DNA of 64,000 nt from Candidatus Omnitrophota bacterium (GTDB lineage Bacteria; Omnitrophota; Gorgyraeia; B26-G9): the NCBI GenBank assembly GCA_043826565.1, contig JBDRPX010000034.1:1096-65095 (forward strand). Reading direction: 5' to 3'. Shown in pieces: positions 23,596-62,433 of this stretch. Position 1 is the stretch's first letter; every line of letters begins with the position of its first letter. A program made the translations under genes and the position numbers. The notes beneath the pieces were generated by a model, which was given only the letters and a program-made list of their open reading frames with translations, had not been told where the DNA came from and did no database searches.

Positions 23596-23642
23596 GCTAA
23601 CCTCAATTTGGACAATTGACAATAGACCATAGACTATAGACC

Positions 23643-24005
23643 TTAAACTATTTCTTTTTCAACTGCAGAAATCAAACCATACAAAGTTCTTGCTAAAGAT
23701 TGGAATAAATTTTCAATATTTTTAAAAATCAAATCTTCTACATACCCCAATTCATTTGCTAATTGAATCAAACACTCAACTTCTGCCATAGAACCTCTCG
23801 CTATATATAAAAAGTTTAAATAATCCTTTTTATGCTGCCTACTAGCTCCTTCTGCAATATTAGCCATTATAGAAACCGCTGCTCTTCGCAACTGAGAAGT
23901 CAATCCATACATTTCATCTTTAGGAAAGTTTTTAGTTGCCTGATAAATAAAAAGCACCAATTTGCTTGCTACTTCATAAGCTTTTATTTTTTTATAATCT
24001 CTCAT
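23643..24005 (-). CDS. Four-helix-bundle protein of the 23S-rRNA-intervening-sequence (IVS) protein family
   Basis: MRDYKKIKAYEVASKLVLFIY...LRRAAVSIMANIAEG is characteristic of the TIGR02436 / IVS family. It is flanked by imperfect inverted repeats (gaccatagactatagacc at 23622-23639; ctatagtcaatggtcc at about 24027-24042). Confidence 0.6.
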   Translation of the reverse strand: MRDYKKIKAYEVASKLVLFIYQATKNFPKDEMYGLTSQLRRAAVSIMANIAEGASRQHKKDYLNFLYIARGSMAEVECLIQLANELGYVEDLIFKNIENLFQSLARTLYGLISAVEKEIV

Positions 24006-24069
24006 ACTATTAATCTTTTTTAGTCTATAGTCAATGGTCCTGCATATCCCCACATTGACACATCATTGT

Positions 24070-25374
24070 CTATTGTCTAGACCTATATAATTTTTTCTGA
24101 AACTGCAACAGCACCTGATTTCTCTGTTTTTTAACCTCTACCGCAACATCATCTTCCAACCCCGCGGCTTTGGTATGCGGCCGGGGTGAATATTTAAAAA
24201 TATAAGCGGCGTCAAATTTAATTTCTTTAAATAAATTAAAAGTATCCTCAAAATCAGCATCGGTTTCTGTAGGAAACCCTACCATAACATCTGTCGTCAG
24301 TTTTAAACCCGGAACTATGTCCCGGCCTTTTTTTACTAATTCAATATAATGCTCCCGGGTATAACCGCGGTTCATCAGCTTTAAAATTTTATTTGATCCG
24401 GACTGCACCGGTAAATGCAGGAATTTTTTACATTTATCTAATTCCGCCATAGATTTAAACATTTCTAATGATGCGTCTTTAGGATGCGAAGTCACAAAAT
24501 CAAACTTCTTTAAACCTTTAATATCATTCACCATCCTCAGCAAATCAGTAAAGGTTACAGGTTTCATGTTACAAGTTTCATGTTTTTTATTTTTTTGCTT
24601 TTCTACCTGTGACCTGTAACTTGCAACCTGGGACTGGTAGCTATTCACATTCTGCCCCAGCAATGTGATCTCTTTTACTTCTTTATTAACCAATCCTTTG
24701 ATTTCCTTTAGGATATCCTCTGCCGGACGGGAACGCTCCCTTCCTCTTACATATGGCACAATACAGTATGAGCAGAAATTATTGCACCCTTCGGCAATGA
24801 TTACATTACAATGGGATTTATCCGCGATATACTCGGTATTATAAACAACCTCATCCCGCTGTTCCTTGCCCACAGCCAGGCCTTTGGAAAATTCTGTAGT
24901 CATATCCGCAAGCAGTCCGGGTATGGAATTAATATTATTCGGGCCTACGACCAGATCGATCAATGGCGATCTCGCGAACGCGGATTGCTGATAGTTCTGC
25001 GCCATACATCCGATCAAACCCACAATAACTTTTTTAGCTTCAGGCTTCAGGCTACAGGCTTCAGGGGCAAAACCATTAGTATTTTTTTTATACTCTTTGT
25101 TTTTAAAACTTGTAGCTTGCAGCTTGTGGCTTGAAGCTTTTAGCTTTTTAATTCTGCCGATCTCAGACCACACCTTATCCTCGGCCTTTTGCCGCACCGA
25201 ACAGGTATTAAACAAAATCACATCCGCCTTTGCCGGAGAATCCACCAGTTTATAGCCGTGCTTGATCAGCATCCCCGCAACTAGCTCAGAATCCCTGTCG
25301 TTCATCTGGCAGCCGAAAGTCCTGATGTAGATTTTTTTAGGCATATTTTTGTAAGTTTTTGATTCTTTTGACAT
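24070..25374 (-). CDS. MiaB/RimO-family radical-SAM methylthiotransferase carrying in-frame repeat-derived insertions and lacking a clear TRAM domain
   Basis: N-terminal MTTase domain (IYIRTFGCQMNDRDSE...FNTCSVR), and a radical-SAM CNNFCSYC motif. Two low-complexity insertions (KLKASSHKLQATSFKNKEY...PEACSLKPEAKK and SYQSQVASYRSQVEKQKNKKHETCNMKPV) are encoded by 7-mer tandem repeats. Confidence 0.7.
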   Translation of the reverse strand: MSKESKTYKNMPKKIYIRTFGCQMNDRDSELVAGMLIKHGYKLVDSPAKADVILFNTCSVRQKAEDKVWSEIGRIKKLKASSHKLQATSFKNKEYKKNTNGFAPEACSLKPEAKKVIVGLIGCMAQNYQQSAFARSPLIDLVVGPNNINSIPGLLADMTTEFSKGLAVGKEQRDEVVYNTEYIADKSHCNVIIAEGCNNFCSYCIVPYVRGRERSRPAEDILKEIKGLVNKEVKEITLLGQNVNSYQSQVASYRSQVEKQKNKKHETCNMKPVTFTDLLRMVNDIKGLKKFDFVTSHPKDASLEMFKSMAELDKCKKFLHLPVQSGSNKILKLMNRGYTREHYIELVKKGRDIVPGLKLTTDVMVGFPTETDADFEDTFNLFKEIKFDAAYIFKYSPRPHTKAAGLEDDVAVEVKKQRNQVLLQFQKKLYRSRQ

Positions 25375-41173: not shown

Positions 41174-41246
41174 AATAAACCCCTTCTTTTATCGGCTCTT
41201 TCGCAATTAATGTGATATTTTCTTTGTTTTTATTTTATAATCGATT

Positions 41247-41440
41247 GCCAAATCAAAATTCAAAAAGCAAAAGTCAAAAATACAAGGCAAAATTAAAAAG
41301 TTATTTACCCAATTTTTATTTTTCACTTAGCATTATTTTTCTTAAGAATTTTATACTCAATAATATTCAACAATTGTATCTTTAAACTTTTGATTTTTTA
41401 ATTGCACTTTTGAGTTTTGATCTTTGACTTTTGAATTTTC
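41247..41440. repeat. MITE-like inverted-repeat element, copy A, between pstB and phoU
   Basis: Arms of about 50 nt: caaaattcaaaaagcaaaagtcaaaaatacaaggcaaaattaaaaag, and on the other side cttttgattttttaattgcacttttgagttttgatctttgacttttgaattttc. They are imperfect reverse complements with an AT-rich core of about 100 nt between them. The right arm is 37/39 identical to copy B (54708-54747). Confidence 0.4.
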
Positions 41441-42195
41441 TATCCGTATCTTCCGGTAATATAATCTTCCGTACGTTTATCGCGCGGAGCATTGAATATT
41501 TTCTGAGTTTCCCCGGATTCGATTAACTCGCCTAAAAGCATAAAACCCGTATTATCGGAAACCCGCGCCGCCTGCTGCATATTATGCGTTACGATTATTA
41601 TAGTATACTTGCTCTTAAGTTCACGCATTAATTCCTCGACTCTCTCGGTTGCCTGCGGGTCCAAGGTCGAACAAGGCTCATCCATTAATAATACATCCGG
41701 CTTAACCGCGATCAGCCGGGCAATACAAAGCCTCTGTTTTTGTTCCAATGATAATTTCAAAGCCGGTTCATTAAGCTTGTCTTTTAATTCGTCCCACAAA
41801 AGCACATCGGAGAGGCTTCTTTCGACAATTTCATCTAACGTGTCTCTGGTTACTTTTTCGGCATGGATTTTTTCTCCAAAAACAATATTCTCATAAATTG
41901 ACAAGGGAAATGGATTAGGCCTTTGGAAGACCATTCCTACTTTTTTACGTAAAACAACCAGATCGGTATGAGCATCCAGAATATTCTCATCATCAATTAA
42001 AACTTCTCCCTGTGTACGCACTCCTTCGATCAGATCATTCATCCGATTAAACACCCGCAGTAATGTTGACTTACCGCAGCCCGAAGGCCCGATTATCGCC
42101 GTGATCCGGTTCTGCGCAAAAGACGAATTAATATTCTTTAAAGCCGGAAACGTCCCATACCAGAAATTTAAATTTTTAGTGATTATCTTTTGCAT
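41440..42195 (-). CDS. pstB: Phosphate ABC transporter ATP-binding protein (second of two tandem PstB)
   Basis: Walker [11 protein letters not shown]-loop, [13 protein letters not shown] signature, and Walker B. Confidence 0.9.
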
Positions 42196-54499: not shown

Positions 54500-54582
54500 C
54501 TCCTGGTATTTTTAAACATATTCCCAAAGTATAGGTTAATTCAATATTTATCAGTAAGTTTTTCTAAATAACCTACTTTATA

Positions 54583-54748
54583 AGTCAAAAATCAAAAGGT
54601 AAAATTCAAAAATTCAATTCAAAATTTAAAACTTACTTATTATCATAAATTCATGTTATTAAAAATAAAGGGAATTAAAATCTTTTTTGATTATTTTTGA
54701 CTTTTAACTTGCACTTTTGAGTTTTGACCTTTGACTTTTGAATTCCCT
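54583..54748. repeat. MITE-like inverted-repeat element, copy B
   Basis: aagtcaaaaatcaaaaggtaaaattcaaaaattcaa ... cttgcacttttgagttttgacctttgacttttgaattccc. The right arm is 37/39 identical to copy A (41401-41440). Confidence 0.4.
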
Positions 54749-54758
54749 ACTCTTGACA

Positions 54759-55877
54759 TTACCTATTTAATAGATTGCTAATAATTCCCAATTTATTTTT
54801 AAGCGTTACGGAACGAAAAATACACATCAGATAATGCAGTTTAACTGCCAAAAATCCCTTTACCTTAAACCCCAGCACAATACCGCAGGCTTTATTATTC
54901 GCCATGGGAATAATATAACCTAAATCCCGGGGGCTATATTTCAAAAACGTCAGCTTATCCATATTTCTGATCACATTCATAGCCGCGGTCTCTCCCTGCA
55001 TAATCGCGAACTGAACCGACATGCGCAAAGCAGCAGGATCCTGCTTAAAATGCGCTGTATCTCCGCAGCAAAAGCAATTATTGCTTAAACGCAGGTATTC
55101 ATCGACAAATATCCTGCCCTGAGAATCAACATCCGCGGTAATATTTTTTAGAAAATCCTGAGCTTTCACTCCCGCCGCCCAGATCAGCATAGCTTTATCA
55201 AAGCACTCTTTGTTCTTAAGCACAACCTTATTCTCTAAAGCGGATTCTACCTCTGAATCCACCCGCATTTCCACACCAAGGGCAGATAAATTATTAATAA
55301 CATACTCCCGCATATATTCGGGAACCAGGCCCAGGAATTTCTTGGATTTTTCGATGATAATAATTTTTTTAGTTTTTCTTTTCCTTATAAAATAACGATG
55401 GATATTCGTAGCGATCTCAATTCCCGTATAACCGCCGCCGCTAATCACAAAAGTATCAAATTCATCAGAATCTAAATTATTCAAAATGATTTTCGCGTCT
55501 TCAATATCGTCAAGTTTAAACGCGGATTTACTTAGCGGGATATTATTGTAGAAATTAGTTTGGGAGCCCGCGGCAATGATCAGATAATCATAATAAATAT
55601 TTTCTTCAGCAAATGAGACTTTATTTTCTTTAAGATCAATTCCGCTGACACAGCCGTGGATAAACTTAAAGGAAAACTTTTCTGCCAGAACAGCTAACTC
55701 CGCGGATAAAAATTCATAATTTATCCGGCAGCTTAAAATATCCGGCAATAAGGGAAGAAAAACAGTTTCTTTCTTCCGGTCAATCAGCACAACCTCAACC
55801 TGCTCCTTATACTTCTTCAGGTATGCGGCCGCGGCTAGCCCGCTAAATCCTCCGCCGATAATCACGATACGTTTCAT
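54759..55877 (-). CDS. NAD(P)/FAD-dependent oxidoreductase (type-II NADH dehydrogenase-like pyridine-nucleotide disulfide oxidoreductase fold)
   Basis: IVIIGGGFSGLAAA dinucleotide-binding motif and a second Rossmann GGGYTG motif. Its end overlaps the prenyltransferase gene. Confidence 0.65.
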   Translation of the reverse strand: MKRIVIIGGGFSGLAAAAYLKKYKEQVEVVLIDRKKETVFLPLLPDILSCRINYEFLSAELAVLAEKFSFKFIHGCVSGIDLKENKVSFAEENIYYDYLIIAAGSQTNFYNNIPLSKSAFKLDDIEDAKIILNNLDSDEFDTFVISGGGYTGIEIATNIHRYFIRKRKTKKIIIIEKSKKFLGLVPEYMREYVINNLSALGVEMRVDSEVESALENKVVLKNKECFDKAMLIWAAGVKAQDFLKNITADVDSQGRIFVDEYLRLSNNCFCCGDTAHFKQDPAALRMSVQFAIMQGETAAMNVIRNMDKLTFLKYSPRDLGYIIPMANNKACGIVLGFKVKGFLAVKLHYLMCIFRSVTLKNKLGIISNLLNR

Positions 55878-57876: not shown

Positions 57877-58737
57877 TTACTTCAGAGAAGTTTCAACCTC
57901 ATTAGCCAGATAATTTTTCGGGTCTTTTTCTAAAGCCATACGCAAATATTTTTTTAAATTCTCCATATCCCCCTGACGCTGATATACCTGGCCCAGACGT
58001 ACATAAGCGTCAATAATATGCGGATCAAGCTCTATTGTTTTTTTTAAATATTCTTCGGCTTTATCAATATCCCCTCCGGCAATGGCCGGAGCCAGTAAAT
58101 AAAAACTTCCCAAACCAAAATAAACTCCGGGAAATTCCGGGAGCAGGCTTCTCGCTCTTTTTAAATTAGGAAATACCTGTAATCCATAAACCGCTTTGGC
58201 GATCGGCCCTCCGGTATCCGCAAGCATGCCCTTAGCTCCGGCGCAAATTAAATAAGCCCGCGTATAATTACTAATATCCACATTTTCTTTTCCCTGCCGG
58301 ATAACCTGATCCGCCAGCCGGACAGCTTGTTTGTAATTCTTTAAACTGAATTCCAGATAAGCCAGGGTAATATATGCCGGAGAAAATTCCGGATCGGCTT
58401 TAATGATCTCCTGCAGTTTAGTTTGGCTTTCGGCTAAATTATATTCACTTCTTTGTATTTCGCTCATGCCCCATTTAGCTTCGATCGACTGCGGGTTGAT
58501 CTTGAGCATTTTCAAAAATATTGCCTTCGCCTGATCCGGCTTATATTCATTAAGATAAACCAAGGCCAAAACATACAAAGAATCCAGCGAACTTTGATTT
58601 ACCCCGACTAATTCTTCGGCTTGGCTGATATTCAGCTTGTCCGCGGATTCATGGAGCATTTTCCAATCCAGGCCATAGCCATAAACACATTGTCCCAGGC
58701 AGAGAAAAACTAATAAAGTTATTTTAAGTTTTTTCAT
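57877..58737 (-). CDS. Secreted TPR-repeat protein
   Basis: Signal MKKLKITLLVFLCLGQCVYG; multiple TPR-like helix pairs. Confidence 0.55.
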   Translation of the reverse strand: MKKLKITLLVFLCLGQCVYGYGLDWKMLHESADKLNISQAEELVGVNQSSLDSLYVLALVYLNEYKPDQAKAIFLKMLKINPQSIEAKWGMSEIQRSEYNLAESQTKLQEIIKADPEFSPAYITLAYLEFSLKNYKQAVRLADQVIRQGKENVDISNYTRAYLICAGAKGMLADTGGPIAKAVYGLQVFPNLKRARSLLPEFPGVYFGLGSFYLLAPAIAGGDIDKAEEYLKKTIELDPHIIDAYVRLGQVYQRQGDMENLKKYLRMALEKDPKNYLANEVETSLK

Positions 58738-58828
58738 AGATTTATGGTAATTATATGTTGATAAATGATAATTGAGTATTGAAAATAGATAATATGGAAA
58801 ATATTTTTGTTTTTACAATGTTTAACTC

Positions 58829-58935
58829 TCTATGGTCTATGGTCTATGGTCTATGGTCTATGGTCTATGGTCTATGGTCTATGGTCTATGGTCTATGGTC
58901 TATGGTCTATGGTCTATGGTCTATGGTCTATGGTC
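58829..58935. repeat. Heptanucleotide tandem array (TATGGTC/TGGTCTA) of about 15 units
   Basis: A perfect 7-bp tandem repeat. It supplies the last codons and the TAG stop of the radical-SAM gene (..ADHRP*). Confidence 0.9.
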
Positions 58936-60540
58936 AGCTTCTAACATATTTAACTTAATTACTGGTTCTTTCTTTTTATTTAAATGGCCTTGCGCGGATT
59001 GGACCTTTTGCAAAAAATTGTCTTTCTTAAATCCCGCTTTCCATTTTTTTAAAACGATCCAGCCGCCGAAACGAATCAAAGAATTACGCCACGGCCGATA
59101 CCATCTTCGCCATCCGGCCCGGATATTATGCAAAAAGAAAACTAGTGAAGGAAAGGAAAATATATTCAGCCCGATCATAAACATATATTTAAACTCATAA
59201 AACCGGCCCATGATTTTTTTAACCGAATAAAGCATATCTTCGGCACTCAGCGGTTCATCCGGGGTAAATAGCGGAAAATTCCCGTCATAATATTCCCAGC
59301 CCACATCCGCCATAGGATAAACCCGGTTTTGTTTAATTAATCTCTCCCGCAATTCTGTGCCCGGCAAAGGCACCGGCAATAAAACCTGGATCGTGTCCAG
59401 TTTGGCCTTTTGAATAAAGCGCCGGAAATACCGAATGCGTTTTTTCGCGGACATCTTAAAAGAAACATTTTCCTGCATCGGATAACCGAAGATAAACATG
59501 CCGTGGACGAGAAAACCCATTTTACTATACACTCTGGTTAAATTGATCATCTCCCGCGGATTAATATGTTTATTCATGGCATTTAATTCTTCTTCTATCG
59601 GCGATTCATAGCCGATCGCCACCATGTTTACCCCGGCCGCGCGCATGGCTAAAAGAAGCTCGGTATCTTTAGCCTTGTCTAAGCGTATCTGCGTAATTAA
59701 ATCCAGCCTTCGGTTAATGCTTTTCTGGTAATGCGTTAACATGCGGCAAAAACGTATTGTTTCCTCACGCTGCTGGCCAAAAAGGTCATCCACGACAAAG
59801 AAGGCTTTGGCATTTTGCGTTTCGACCAAAGCACTGATCTGCTGAAGCAGCCGCTCCGGAGTGGCGCAGCGCGGTTTATCTCTTACCGTACAAAATTCAC
59901 AATTCATTCCACAGCCGCGGATTCTTTCTACCGGATATACTTTTAAGTCCGCGTAACGCAGCAGCGAAAAATCCGGCAAAGGCAGGCTGTCAAAATCAGT
60001 GATCTTTTCTCTTTCCGGGTTTACAATGATTTTTTCTTTATCTTTATAAGCAATGCCCTTAACCGCACGCAAATCTTTTTTATCTTTTAAGGCCGGGATC
60101 AGCTCTCTGATCGTATACTCACCTTCGCCGATAACCACATAATCAATATTTGAATTTAAAGCTTCCGCGATATTATCCTTAGCAAAATGCTGGCCGCCGG
60201 CAATCGTAATAATGCCTTTGGCTTTATAAAAACCGGCAAGTTCATATAATCGGGGGATGGTACTGGTTAAGCCGCCATAGAAACCAATAATATCCGCGGG
60301 CCTAAGTTTTTGCAGCAGTTCGTGGTCGGCACCTTTTTCCGGATTTTTCGGAGCATTGCGGTGAAGGTTATTTTCATCAATAACCTCAACATCCCAGCCT
60401 TCGATCTCATTGACCACACTGGCAATAGTAATGGGGCCTAAAGCCGTGGTTTTCCTGGCGATACCCGAGTAGATATTAAACGCGGGAAACGCCGGAAGAA
60501 TAATGCGAAATCTATATCTTTTTTTAACCAGATCAACCAT
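58921..60540 (-). CDS. B12-binding-domain radical SAM protein
   Basis: N-terminal cobalamin-binding Rossmann-like domain, radical-SAM CGMNCEFC, and a basic/aromatic C-terminal extension that runs into the heptamer array. Confidence 0.75.
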   Translation of the reverse strand: MVDLVKKRYRFRIILPAFPAFNIYSGIARKTTALGPITIASVVNEIEGWDVEVIDENNLHRNAPKNPEKGADHELLQKLRPADIIGFYGGLTSTIPRLYELAGFYKAKGIITIAGGQHFAKDNIAEALNSNIDYVVIGEGEYTIRELIPALKDKKDLRAVKGIAYKDKEKIIVNPEREKITDFDSLPLPDFSLLRYADLKVYPVERIRGCGMNCEFCTVRDKPRCATPERLLQQISALVETQNAKAFFVVDDLFGQQREETIRFCRMLTHYQKSINRRLDLITQIRLDKAKDTELLLAMRAAGVNMVAIGYESPIEEELNAMNKHINPREMINLTRVYSKMGFLVHGMFIFGYPMQENVSFKMSAKKRIRYFRRFIQKAKLDTIQVLLPVPLPGTELRERLIKQNRVYPMADVGWEYYDGNFPLFTPDEPLSAEDMLYSVKKIMGRFYEFKYMFMIGLNIFSFPSLVFFLHNIRAGWRRWYRPWRNSLIRFGGWIVLKKWKAGFKKDNFLQKVQSAQGHLNKKKEPVIKLNMLEADHRP

Positions 60541-60644
60541 TGTATATCCGGGTAATGATTATTGAAAATTGAGTATTGATAATTGAATATTGAAAGTAGA
60601 TAATAGAAAAAATATTTTTACAATGTCCAACTCTCTATGGTCTA

Positions 60645-60775
60645 TTCTCTATTGTCTATTCTCTATTGTCTATTCTCTATTGTCTATTCTCTATTGTCTA
60701 TTCTCTATTGTCTATTCTCTATGGTCTATGGTCTATGGTCTATGGTCTATGGTCTATGGTCTATGGTCTATGGTC
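60645..60775. repeat. Compound heptamer array: about 6 units of (TATTCTC TATTGTC) then about 8 units of TATGGTC, upstream of the radical-SAM gene
   Basis: Direct reading of 60645-60775. It lies in the promoter region of gene 58921-60540. Confidence 0.9.
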
Positions 60776-60807
60776 ATTATCTTTTCTCTCTACTCGCTAT
60801 TTATATA

Positions 60808-62433
60808 TTATACTCCAACAGCATATAATTCTTCACGTTGTTTTTTTATAGACTCATTAGCCAGATACTCATCTAAAGTATAACGCGGCCGGTCAATATA
60901 CCCCTGCGGAGTTATCTCCACAATGTGATCCGCCACGGACTGCACGATCGCATGGTCATGCGAAGCCAAAAGCAAAGTACCCTTAAACCGCACCAAGCCG
61001 TCATTAAGCGCGGTAATTGATTCCAGATCAAGATGATTCGTCGGTTCGTCCAATATCAGAGTGTTTGCCTTAGAAAGCATAACTTTAGCCAGCATACAGC
61101 GCACCTTTTCTCCACCGGAAAGCACTCCCACTTTTTTAAACACATCATCACCGCTAAACAACATCTTTCCTAAAAAACTACGCATGAAATTTTCATCCGT
61201 ATCCTTTGAATATTGCCGCAGCCAATCGATCAAAGATAAGTCCTGTTGAAAATACGGGCCGAAATCTTTGGGAAAATAACTATATTTTACGGCCGGGCCC
61301 CATTTATATTCTCCGGAATCTGCTTCGGTTGCTGCGGTCAATAATTCAAACAGCGCAGTCTTGGCCGCGTCATTAGGCCCTAAAAAGGCTACTTTTTCTC
61401 CTTTGTTTATCTGCAGGGTAAAATCTTTAAACATCTGCTCTTGGGAAATTGTCTTACTCAATTTTGTCACACTTAATAAATTATCTCCGCTGTCTTTTTC
61501 AAAAGCCAGGTCAATATACGGATATTTGCGCGACGAAGGTTTGATCTCCTCAAGATTAAGTTTTTCCAAAGCTTTCTTGCGCGAAGTTGCCTGACGCGAT
61601 TTGGAAGCATTCGCGCTAAACCGGGCAATAAATTCCAGCAGTTCTTTACGTTTTTCTCCGACCTTGTGGTTTTTATCCTGCCGCTGGCGCAGAGCTAATT
61701 CCCGCGACTGTGACCAAAAGCTGTAATTACCGGTATAGAGTTCAATTTTGTTAAAATCAATATCCGCCATATGCGTACAGACTTTATCTAAGAAATGCCG
61801 GTCATGAGAAACAATAACCGCGGTATTGTTAAACTCGATCAAAAATTCCTCCAGCCACATACAGGTTTCCATATCCAAATGGTTCGTCGGCTCATCCAAA
61901 AGCAATACATCGGGATTACCGATCAAAGCCTGGGCTAAAAGCACGCGCACTTTCATATTGGCATTAAGCTGTTTCATTTTCTGCTGATGCAACTCATCTT
62001 TAACGCCCAGATTACTTAAAAGTTTACCGGCTTCAGATTCAATGCTCCAGCCGTCCATTTTATTAAAGTCTTCTTCGAGTTCGGCCAGGCGATGCCCGTC
62101 AGCATCGGTAAAATCACTTTTCGCATAGATCAATTCGCGCTCGAGCATAATATCATAAAGATGTTTATGCCCCATGATCACGGTATTTAAGGCGGTTTCT
62201 TCATTAAAAGCAAAATGGTCCTGCCTTAACACAGAAATGCGCTGTCCCCGCGGCACAGAAACGGTTCCGGCACTTGATTCAATTTCTCCGGAGAGGATTT
62301 TTAAAAATGTTGATTTTCCGGAGCCGTTAGCTCCGATCAATCCATAGCAATTGCCGTCGGTAAAGATGAGGTTCACATCTTTAAACAAAGGCTCTTTGCC
62401 GAATTGTAAGGTTACGGAATTTACTTTGATCAT
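60808..62433 (-). CDS. ABC-F family ATPase (EttA/Uup-like translation factor); two ABC domains, no TM
   Basis: Two Walker A boxes (GANGSGKST; GPNDAAKT) and two signature motifs (LSGGEK..), with a PtIM-like linker. Confidence 0.8.
   Translation of the reverse strand: MIKVNSVTLQFGKEPLFKDVNLIFTDGNCYGLIGANGSGKSTFLKILSGEIESSAGTVSVPRGQRISVLRQDHFAFNEETALNTVIMGHKHLYDIMLERELIYAKSDFTDADGHRLAELEEDFNKMDGWSIESEAGKLLSNLGVKDELHQQKMKQLNANMKVRVLLAQALIGNPDVLLLDEPTNHLDMETCMWLEEFLIEFNNTAVIVSHDRHFLDKVCTHMADIDFNKIELYTGNYSFWSQSRELALRQRQDKNHKVGEKRKELLEFIARFSANASKSRQATSRKKALEKLNLEEIKPSSRKYPYIDLAFEKDSGDNLLSVTKLSKTISQEQMFKDFTLQINKGEKVAFLGPNDAAKTALFELLTAATEADSGEYKWGPAVKYSYFPKDFGPYFQQDLSLIDWLRQYSKDTDENFMRSFLGKMLFSGDDVFKKVGVLSGGEKVRCMLAKVMLSKANTLILDEPTNHLDLESITALNDGLVRFKGTLLLASHDHAIVQSVADHIVEITPQGYIDRPRYTLDEYLANESIKKQREELYAVGV

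Follow-up and report, generated by a model that had tools for sequence, protein, structure and literature searches.

Two arrays of heptanucleotide repeats, here called A and B, lie on either side of a gene for a B12-binding radical-SAM protein in a Candidatus Omnitrophota bacterium (GenBank assembly GCA_043826565.1, contig JBDRPX010000034.1, positions 1,096 to 65,095 of the forward strand). The whole of this stretch, 64,000 nucleotides long, is the window that we analysed. The object that is repeated here is an intergenic 'array + leader' module of about 200-235 bp, which is present in two copies in tandem gene spacers. The reading that we favour, with a probability of roughly 0.55, is that A and B are solo arrays resembling the short tandemly repeated repetitive elements (STRRs), that they sit within this duplicated module, and that their effect, if they have any, is a graded one in cis. 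The parts of the two modules are the following.

58829-58935, minus strand: array A; Tandem Repeats Finder (TRF) gives period 7, 15.3 copies, 100% matches, score 214.
58738-58828, minus strand: leader of module A, AT-rich, 91 nt, from array A to the ATG of a gene for a tetratricopeptide-repeat (TPR) protein.
60634-60775, minus strand: array B; TRF gives period 7, 20.3 copies, 89% matches.
60541-60633, minus strand: leader of module B, AT-rich, 93 nt, from array B to the ATG of the radical-SAM gene.

By exact parsing, positions 58831-58935 of array A consist of 15 TATGGTC units, all perfect, which read GACCATA on the coding strand. The parsing and TRF agree with a previous reading of this DNA (the sequence-only reading), in which about 15 perfect TATGGTC units had been counted at the 3' end of the radical-SAM gene. 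Array B (60636-60775) is made of 20 heptamers, namely one TATGGTC, five (TATTCTC TATTGTC) pairs plus one TATTCTC, and eight TATGGTC; in the coding sense it therefore runs (GACCATA)8, then (GAGAATA GACAATA)5.5, then GACCATA, and TRF also reports it with period 14 (10 copies, 96% matches). The compound structure that had been described on this promoter side was recovered as 11 alternating TATTCTC/TATTGTC units followed by eight TATGGTC, with one leading TATGGTC in addition. The two arrays have the same orientation, (GACCATA)n being on the minus strand, which carries all local genes. With 15 and 20 head-to-tail heptamers in tandem, confirmed by TRF, both have the at least three copies that make an array STRR-like, and the proposed assignment to the STRR or heptanucleotide-repeat kind holds: the arrays have period 7 and are tandem, mostly intergenic and of several unit types. 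A 12-mer of the unit, TGGTCTATGGTC, has 31 matches in the window when up to two mismatches are allowed, as against 2.3 expected from shuffles.

The sense strands of both arrays are purine-rich; array A contains 43% A, 28% C and 15% G, and G exceeds C in the 14-mer block of array B. The sense RNA of the arrays is predicted to be unstructured, with a minimum free energy (MFE) of 0 over 107 and 142 nt, while a hairpin held by G-U pairs is predicted for the antisense RNA (UGGUCUA)15 (-51.5 kcal/mol, z = -10). Hairpin formation by the DNA itself was ruled out, the MFE of single-stranded DNA being 0 for both strands. Scans of the window with Rfam (gathering thresholds) and for tRNA gave no matches.

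That the module, and not the array by itself, has been duplicated is visible in the leaders, which are 83% identical over about 100 nt. The junction of ACAATGTnnAACTCTC with TATGGTC is identical in both modules and occurs window-wide at these two sites only. Each leader contains, between the array and the ATG, a -10-like TATTAT and, 18 nt away, a -35-like hexamer (TGGACA-18-TATTAT in module B; TTGTAA-18-TATTAT in module A, whose leader also holds degenerate TCAATAN heptamers). The -35-like hexamers begin 4-12 nt past the array end in both modules and are consensus matches in AT-rich DNA. When metagenomes were scanned for the junction AATGTNNAACTCTCTATGGTCTAT of the module, 0 matches were returned.

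The flanks of the arrays have diverged by 17% between the two modules, yet array A is free of substitutions over 105 nt; the eight terminal TATGGTC units of array B are likewise perfect, and so is its 5.5-copy 14-mer block. Arrays as old and as static as their flanks would carry several substitutions, which points to recent or ongoing slippage. From this we infer that the arrays have probably been homogenised by ongoing slippage in 7- and 14-nt registers. At the nearest orthologous loci (L001-L003), where the radical-SAM protein is 73-77% identical, heptamer arrays are absent and the gene order is different. The gene neighbourhood of the radical-SAM gene is not conserved in the two nearest relatives, and no close relative emerged when the window was compared by blastn with all fetched loci. 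It is exceedingly improbable that the arrays are artefacts of a metagenome-assembled contig. Many (TGGTCTA)n arrays do lie at contig ends in other metagenome-assembled genomes (MAGs), e.g., L006/L041 and L007/L091, and an exact copy number in a MAG is not verifiable; on the other hand, neither A nor B is as long as typical maximal k-mers and reads, each has unique sequence on both sides as an anchor, and similar arrays are found in genomes of isolates and in closed genomes (Dyadobacter, Cnuella, a complete Saccharibacteria chromosome, and Nostoc/Calothrix plasmids).

Along the minus strand, the ABC-F stop is followed, after 32 nt, by array B, leader, radical-SAM gene, array A, leader and TPR ATG; the three genes are these:

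60808-62433, minus strand: gene for an ABC-F ATPase, the upstream neighbour, whose stop is 32 nt from array B.
58921-60540, minus strand: gene for the B12-binding radical-SAM protein, 539 aa, between modules B and A.
57877-58737, minus strand: gene for the TPR-repeat protein, downstream of module A.

The radical-SAM protein is 100% identical to an NCBI protein from an Omnitrophota MAG and about 70% identical to those of many other Omnitrophota MAGs. Its open reading frame (ORF) ends in ...LEADHRP and a stop codon. As the sequence-only reading had stated, array A supplies the final codons and the stop of this gene: the last four codons (DHRP) and the TAG fall within the first two units of the array. 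The conserved core of the protein ends near aa 526, and a tail of 13 residues, VIKLNMLEADHRP, then runs into array A. On the coding strand the GACCATA repeat contains TAG in all three frames, and the opposite strand is stop-free in every frame. The radical-SAM stop therefore falls in unit 2 at any copy number of at least 2 and the C-terminus is fixed, so that the suggestion that copy number could alter it does not stand. The parallel suggestion about promoter spacing finds no support either, the promoter-like hexamers common to both modules being located between array and ATG. Array B sits upstream of the -35-like hexamer, outside the -35/-10 interval; gain or loss of units would thus move the upstream DNA in 7-bp steps and leave the spacing of the hexamers unchanged.

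These results bear directly on the resemblance to contingency loci that had been noticed in the arrays. In a classical locus of this type, slippage would switch the radical-SAM gene on and off, or would alter its C-terminus or the spacing of the hexamers. Perfect repeats beside a gene, in a unit whose length is not a multiple of three, fit this idea, which we nevertheless regard as very improbable, because A and B fail it both on reading frame and on hexamer spacing. The ORF reaches the array in one and the same frame and has its stop in unit 2 whenever two or more copies are present, the conserved core ends about 13 residues ahead of the array, and array B is outside the -35/-10 interval. Moreover, the gene is a conserved, core-like gene of Omnitrophota, about 70% identical across many MAGs, and not a surface or variable one. 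Two plus-strand ORFs of the form (MVYGLWS)n, at 58832-59200 and 60590-60883, which exist because the plus strand of the arrays has no stops, were rejected as genes, being antisense to conserved genes. Such spurious ORFs may be mis-annotated by gene callers.

The distribution of the unit was examined in contigs from one genome per species of GTDB, with (TGGTCTA)4 as query. A search for other (TGGTCTA)n loci had been proposed earlier, and it was productive: at least four units in tandem occur in 116 stretches across many phyla. Most of these are from Bacteroidota, and ten loci come from Omnitrophota MAGs. Further carriers are two Clostridia MAGs with many loci each, Nitrospirota, Armatimonadota, Acidobacteriota, Gemmatimonadota, Deinococcota, Saccharibacteria, Cyanobacteria, Planctomycetota, Pseudomonadota and one Nitrososphaeraceae MAG. 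One identical heptamer unit thus recurs across many phyla, and the units found beside (TGGTCTA)n are its relatives (TGGTCCA, TAGTCTA, TCGTCTA and TGGACCA). The arrays are intergenic, and 111 out of 124 have no inverted partner within 900 nt. Where the stop of a gene faces the array, GACCATA is in the sense orientation in 49 cases and in the other orientation in 25 (in Omnitrophota loci, 6/6 in sense), for which a preference for the stop-rich, unstructured orientation is the simplest explanation. An ORF that ends in the TAG of the array, like that of the radical-SAM gene, recurs in several loci, including L013, L091 and L041. Control scans of viral contigs gave 1 match for (TGGTCTA)4 and 0, 0 and 3 for three scrambles of the same composition, counts that are too small to judge enrichment.

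The STRR2 repeat of the heterocystous cyanobacteria (Calothrix/Nostoc) has the unit TTGGTCA. Like A and B, the cyanobacterial STRRs are 7-nt tandem units, mostly intergenic, of several unit types and with a GGTC-type core, and a Nostochopsis locus (L069) even carries (TGGTCTA)4; they differ in phylum and in exact unit, and A and B go together with a leader module that has been duplicated. Calothrix is where STRRs were described, and they are present even inside RNase P RNA (Vioque 1997, as cited in PMC2858038). According to a second paper (PMC4692102, citing a 2007 survey), heptameric simple sequence repeats (SSRs) are over-represented in bacteria, either solo or as convergent pairs, and their length differs among close relatives. 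Indels in 7-nt steps also separate Cyanothece strains (PMC4679880). A and B belong to this known class of heptamer repeats, which is hereby extended to Omnitrophota. The GGGAATC/GGGGAYT heptamers of Xanthomonas and Nostoc, of which Xanthomonas has 70-75 convergent pairs per genome, are likewise intergenic SSRs, solo or in convergent inverted pairs (PMC4692102). They are G-rich and capable of forming G-quadruplexes, whereas (GACCATA)n and (TGGTCTA)n are not, their single strands being predicted to be unstructured.

A further parallel is offered by the TAACTGA repeats of Beggiatoaceae, Cyanobacteria and Bacteroidetes (PMC4679880). They too are heptamers 5' of start codons with stops in the forward orientation; they have a patchy spread across phyla, are carried by near-identical spacers duplicated within one genome, and are missing from the orthologous spacers of close relatives. 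On the other hand, they occur in 2-6 copies a few nt from the start codon, whereas A and B have 15-20 copies and are separated from the start codon by about 95 nt that include a promoter-like element. The TAACTGA repeats have been proposed to act in translation (PMC4679880), and in Nostoc the deletion of heptamer repeats alters the output of the recO promoter (bioRxiv 10.1101/2022.06.06.494920).

On the reading that we prefer, slipped-strand mispairing in 7- and 14-nt registers would lengthen, shorten and homogenise the arrays at a rate far above that of point mutation, and next to gene ends only the stop-rich, unstructured orientation would be tolerated. The effect of an array, if any, would be graded and would act in cis on how the downstream gene is expressed, possibly through the DNA just upstream of the promoter or through an unstructured, purine/A-rich intercistronic leader. 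The array would act neither as an on/off switch nor as a changer of protein sequence. We judge a graded effect on the downstream gene to be likelier than none because of the position of the arrays and of the precedents (the Nostoc recO promoter and the TAACTGA repeats). Several points weigh against this interpretation as a whole. Slippage at A and B is deduced from the perfection of units next to flanks that have diverged. In DNA that is rich in AT, the promoter-like hexamers count for little: 18 sites were found as compared with 9.4 expected. The orientation bias is only about 2:1, among loci that are not phylogenetically independent. Finally, purely neutral slippage leaves unexplained why the period is 7, and not 6 or 8, across many phyla, as well as the tie of such arrays to the PF05635 cassettes described below.

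The omega repressor polymerises on the heptads of pSM19035, where the number of units scales the regulatory output. By analogy, the heptads of A and B could be sites for a small DNA-binding protein that polymerises on 7-bp units, with copy number tuning the output, although we hold this to be unlikely. The arrays end 4-12 nt upstream of a -35-like hexamer, and their units fit the quasi-palindromic T-N-G-W-C-N-A, as do TGGTCCA, TAGTCTA and TGGACCA elsewhere. Quasi-palindromy as a general property of the heptamer units was discarded, since it is true of the TGGTCTA/TGGTCCA family and not of most of the cassette arms. For Nostoc, a factor that binds heptamers has been postulated (bioRxiv 10.1101/2022.06.06.494920). 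The ctxAB promoter of Vibrio cholerae has TTTTGAT heptads, on which ToxT and H-NS act and where the number of units scales output (bioRxiv 10.1101/2021.05.14.444153); like A and B, they are tandem 7-bp units just 5' of a promoter, which at A and B is a predicted one. However, no gene for a ribbon-helix-helix, helix-turn-helix or other small regulator adjoins the arrays. Units vary widely between loci and genomes, unlike what is expected of a single sequence-specific binder, and elsewhere arrays lie 6-40 nt from start codons, hence are necessarily transcribed. The ctxAB and pSM19035 heptads also differ from A and B in having 3-10 units and a known cognate protein, as compared with 15-20 units and no adjacent regulator gene.

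A role at the RNA level carries, in our view, just as little probability. Within a polycistronic transcript, the arrays would provide a ribosome standby or S1 site, or an entry site for Rho or an RNase, and would in addition stop read-through translation. The predicted absence of structure in the sense RNA over 107 and 142 nt is favourable to this idea, as are the A-rich composition of array A with C in excess of G, the stops in all three frames and the parallel with the proposal for the TAACTGA repeats (PMC4679880). No intrinsic terminator is predicted between these genes, and no clear Shine-Dalgarno sequence was seen before the radical-SAM or the TPR start codon, both of which would also suit an action on the transcript. 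Conversely, the 14-mer block of array B has more G than C, unlike a rut site, and about 95 nt, including a promoter-like element, separate the arrays from the start codons.

The same unit family is found at a second type of locus in the window, a gene for a so-called intervening sequence (IVS) protein bracketed by inverted heptamer arrays:

23643-24005, minus strand: PF05635/TIGR02436 'IVS protein' gene (E = 1e-35); the locus with its arms extends over 23597-24085.
23605-23649 and 24020-24085: the two inverted heptamer arms of this PF05635 gene.

The arms consist of GACCATA/GACTATA/GACAATA units at 23605-23649 and of TAGTCTA/TGGTC/TTGTCTA units at 24020-24085; together with the TATGGTC/TATTGTC units of A and B they constitute one unit family. 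The core that had been said to be shared with the surroundings of the IVS-protein gene is therefore real, units of the GACCATA family forming its inverted flanks. In the predicted fold of the mRNA the two arms pair with each other. The idea that most (TGGTCTA)n arrays adjoin PF05635 genes was ruled out, as only 3 of the 116 loci contain such a gene; in two of these three the gene abuts the array. For instance, at L041 (1-560, from a Chthonomonas MAG) an 18-unit (TGGTCTA) array at the contig end abuts a PF05635 gene whose stop is the first TAG of the array, a situation like that of the radical-SAM gene in the window. Another contig from this MAG (L006) ends in the same array, which indicates that assemblies break at such repeats.

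As a converse sample, eighty metagenome loci encoding PF05635 relatives (L120-L199) were fetched, and nearly all are bracketed by inverted heptamer arrays, whose unit differs from locus to locus, with upstream and downstream units that are reverse complements of each other. In the 73 distinct loci with full flanks, the mean of the best-of-21 score at lag 7 is 15.1 upstream and 14.7 downstream, compared with 9.3 in controls and about 9 at other lags; at least 17 matches of 21 at this lag are reached by 29 upstream and 27 downstream flanks versus 2/109 controls. The complementarity of the arm pair exceeds the 99th percentile of mismatched pairs in 48 of the 73, and 60 have a 5' arm rich in purines. 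As a check for selection on the cassette arms at the RNA level, duplex energies were compared between sense and antisense and did not differ (31 versus 41 loci, p = 0.54), although duplexfold on 120-nt flanks proved too permissive for a verdict.

The same bracket is present in finished plasmids of cultured Calothrix, Nostoc punctiforme and Geminocystis, as well as in Azospirillum. In two Nostocales plasmids (L201, L202) the cassette with both arms lies between an integrase gene and the next gene, and in homologous plasmids devoid of it (L206-L208) these two genes are only 3 nt apart; in pNPUN01, the 3' arm of the cassette is duplicated. In the 23S rRNA gene carried by plasmid AZO_p2 of Azospirillum lipoferum 4B (L205), an IVS of 473 nt encoding PF05635 takes the place of the 19-nt tip of a helix, which we take to be helix 45, judged by its position. 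The ends of this IVS are heptamer-periodic arms (GGACGGA/GGACAGA ... TCCGTCC/TCTGTCT), and the AZO_p3 copy of the 23S rRNA gene in the same strain (L210) lacks the IVS and is identical across the aligned flanks. These comparisons of filled and empty sites identify the arms as the ends of an inserted unit. Arms and PF05635 ORF are a single inserted unit, found in an rRNA gene and between protein-coding genes. No description of the heptamer bracket of PF05635 genes was found in the literature searched, which was a limited collection, and this bracket is the part of our results that may be new. A '23S rRNA IVP' appears in a figure legend of CRISPR-association results (PMC10910872); the association could, at a guess, arise from flanking heptamer arrays picked up as CRISPR-like arrays.

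A and B are not complete cassettes of this kind. No inverted complementary partner of either exists within 900 nt (best score 10-11, threshold 16), and no PF05635/TIGR02436 ORF stands beside them, the neighbours being the radical-SAM, TPR and ABC-F genes. The window gene belongs with the IVSs of 23S rRNA and their PF05635/TIGR02436 four-helix-bundle proteins (Avd relatives; PDB 2GSC, 2RLD). These IVSs are comparable to A and B through the heptamer-periodic arms of the Azospirillum helix-45 IVS and through the unit family that the local cassette arms share with A and B, and are unlike them in that A and B lack both a partner arm and a PF05635 ORF and do not lie in an rRNA gene.

It is nonetheless conceivable, if doubtful, that A and B are one-ended remnants or derivatives of such IVS-type cassettes. 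A complete cassette would comprise a 5' purine-rich arm, a short AT-rich leader, the PF05635 ORF and a complementary 3' arm; the arm and the leader would have been left or copied before host genes, for which they would now be a portable leader or promoter. The order at A and B (arm, AT-rich leader, start codon) corresponds to this scheme, their sense strands are purine-rich like the 5' arms of 60/73 cassettes, and the local cassette shares their unit family. The bracketing of PF05635 genes by inverted heptamer arrays at 73 loci, the insertion of arms and ORF as a unit in the Nostoc/Calothrix plasmids and in the Azospirillum 23S rRNA, and the presence in the window of ORF-less heptamer-arm hairpins, two of them in frame inside miaB, agree with it as well. 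However, the leaders of A and B resemble neither that of the local cassette nor that of L120, the closest cassette, and at A and B nothing was seen of a 3' arm or a degraded ORF. With 3 of 116 (TGGTCTA)n loci having PF05635, solo arrays far outnumber cassettes, and no mechanism or enzyme of transposition is known.

More broadly, heptamer arrays may be the terminal stems of a hitherto unrecognised family of insertion elements, 'IVS elements', that occur across phyla with the PF05635 gene in the loop or with no ORF, and solo arrays may be one-ended or expanded derivatives of these; to this wider proposal we give a similarly low credence. If it were true, the PF05635 protein and the STRR-type repeats, unexplained since 1990, would have a common origin, and this protein would possibly be the heptamer-binding factor. 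The elements would land in rRNA helices, in intergenic spacers and even in reading frames, and A and B would have been captured together with their leader, to serve host genes as expression modules. Should solo arrays come from PF05635 cassettes or use the same machinery, the origin of STRR-type repeats could be put to the test. The link to the cassettes is of greater interest than arrays A and B themselves. In practical terms, heptamer arrays break MAG assemblies, create spurious ORFs on their stop-free strand and can supply stops to real genes.

Heptamer periodicity is not confined in the window to the loci described so far. When at least 16 matches of 21 at lag 7 were required, 8 of the 22 intergenic gaps of at least 40 nt were found to be periodic versus 1/185 coding windows, and at lags of 5, 6, 8 and 9 no intergenic gap reaches this value. 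The unit varies by locus (GACCATA, GACAATA, TGAAAAT, GTGTAAA, TCAAAAG, GCTTCAG, GTTACAG), and some of the arrays are solo while others form inverted pairs. Among those inspected by eye, solo arrays located 5' of start codons are purine-rich on the sense strand. Four further elements with heptamer arms were recorded:

41174-41445, minus strand: ORF-less hairpin element with TCAAAAG-type heptamer arms, paralogue of 54500-54765.
54500-54765, minus strand: second copy of the ORF-less heptamer-arm hairpin, paralogue of 41174-41445.
24549-24640, minus strand: heptamer-arm palindrome, in frame in a MiaB homologue.
25030-25149, minus strand: second heptamer-arm palindrome, in frame in the MiaB homologue.

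The two hairpin elements are 76% identical, with arms that are nearly identical between the copies, and the predicted stem of both has one mismatch per heptad. TTTTGAA/TTCAAAA, to be compared with their TCAAAAG-type arms, is a heptamer that has been reported in Nostoc 5' of genes (bioRxiv 10.1101/2022.06.06.494920). The MiaB methylthiotransferase homologue (24070-25374, minus strand) has an ORF that stays open through both palindromes, and relative to PDB 7MJV it contains extra residues at 74-107 (about 34) and at about 249-265 (about 17). These in-frame palindromes are reminiscent of the Rickettsia palindromic elements.

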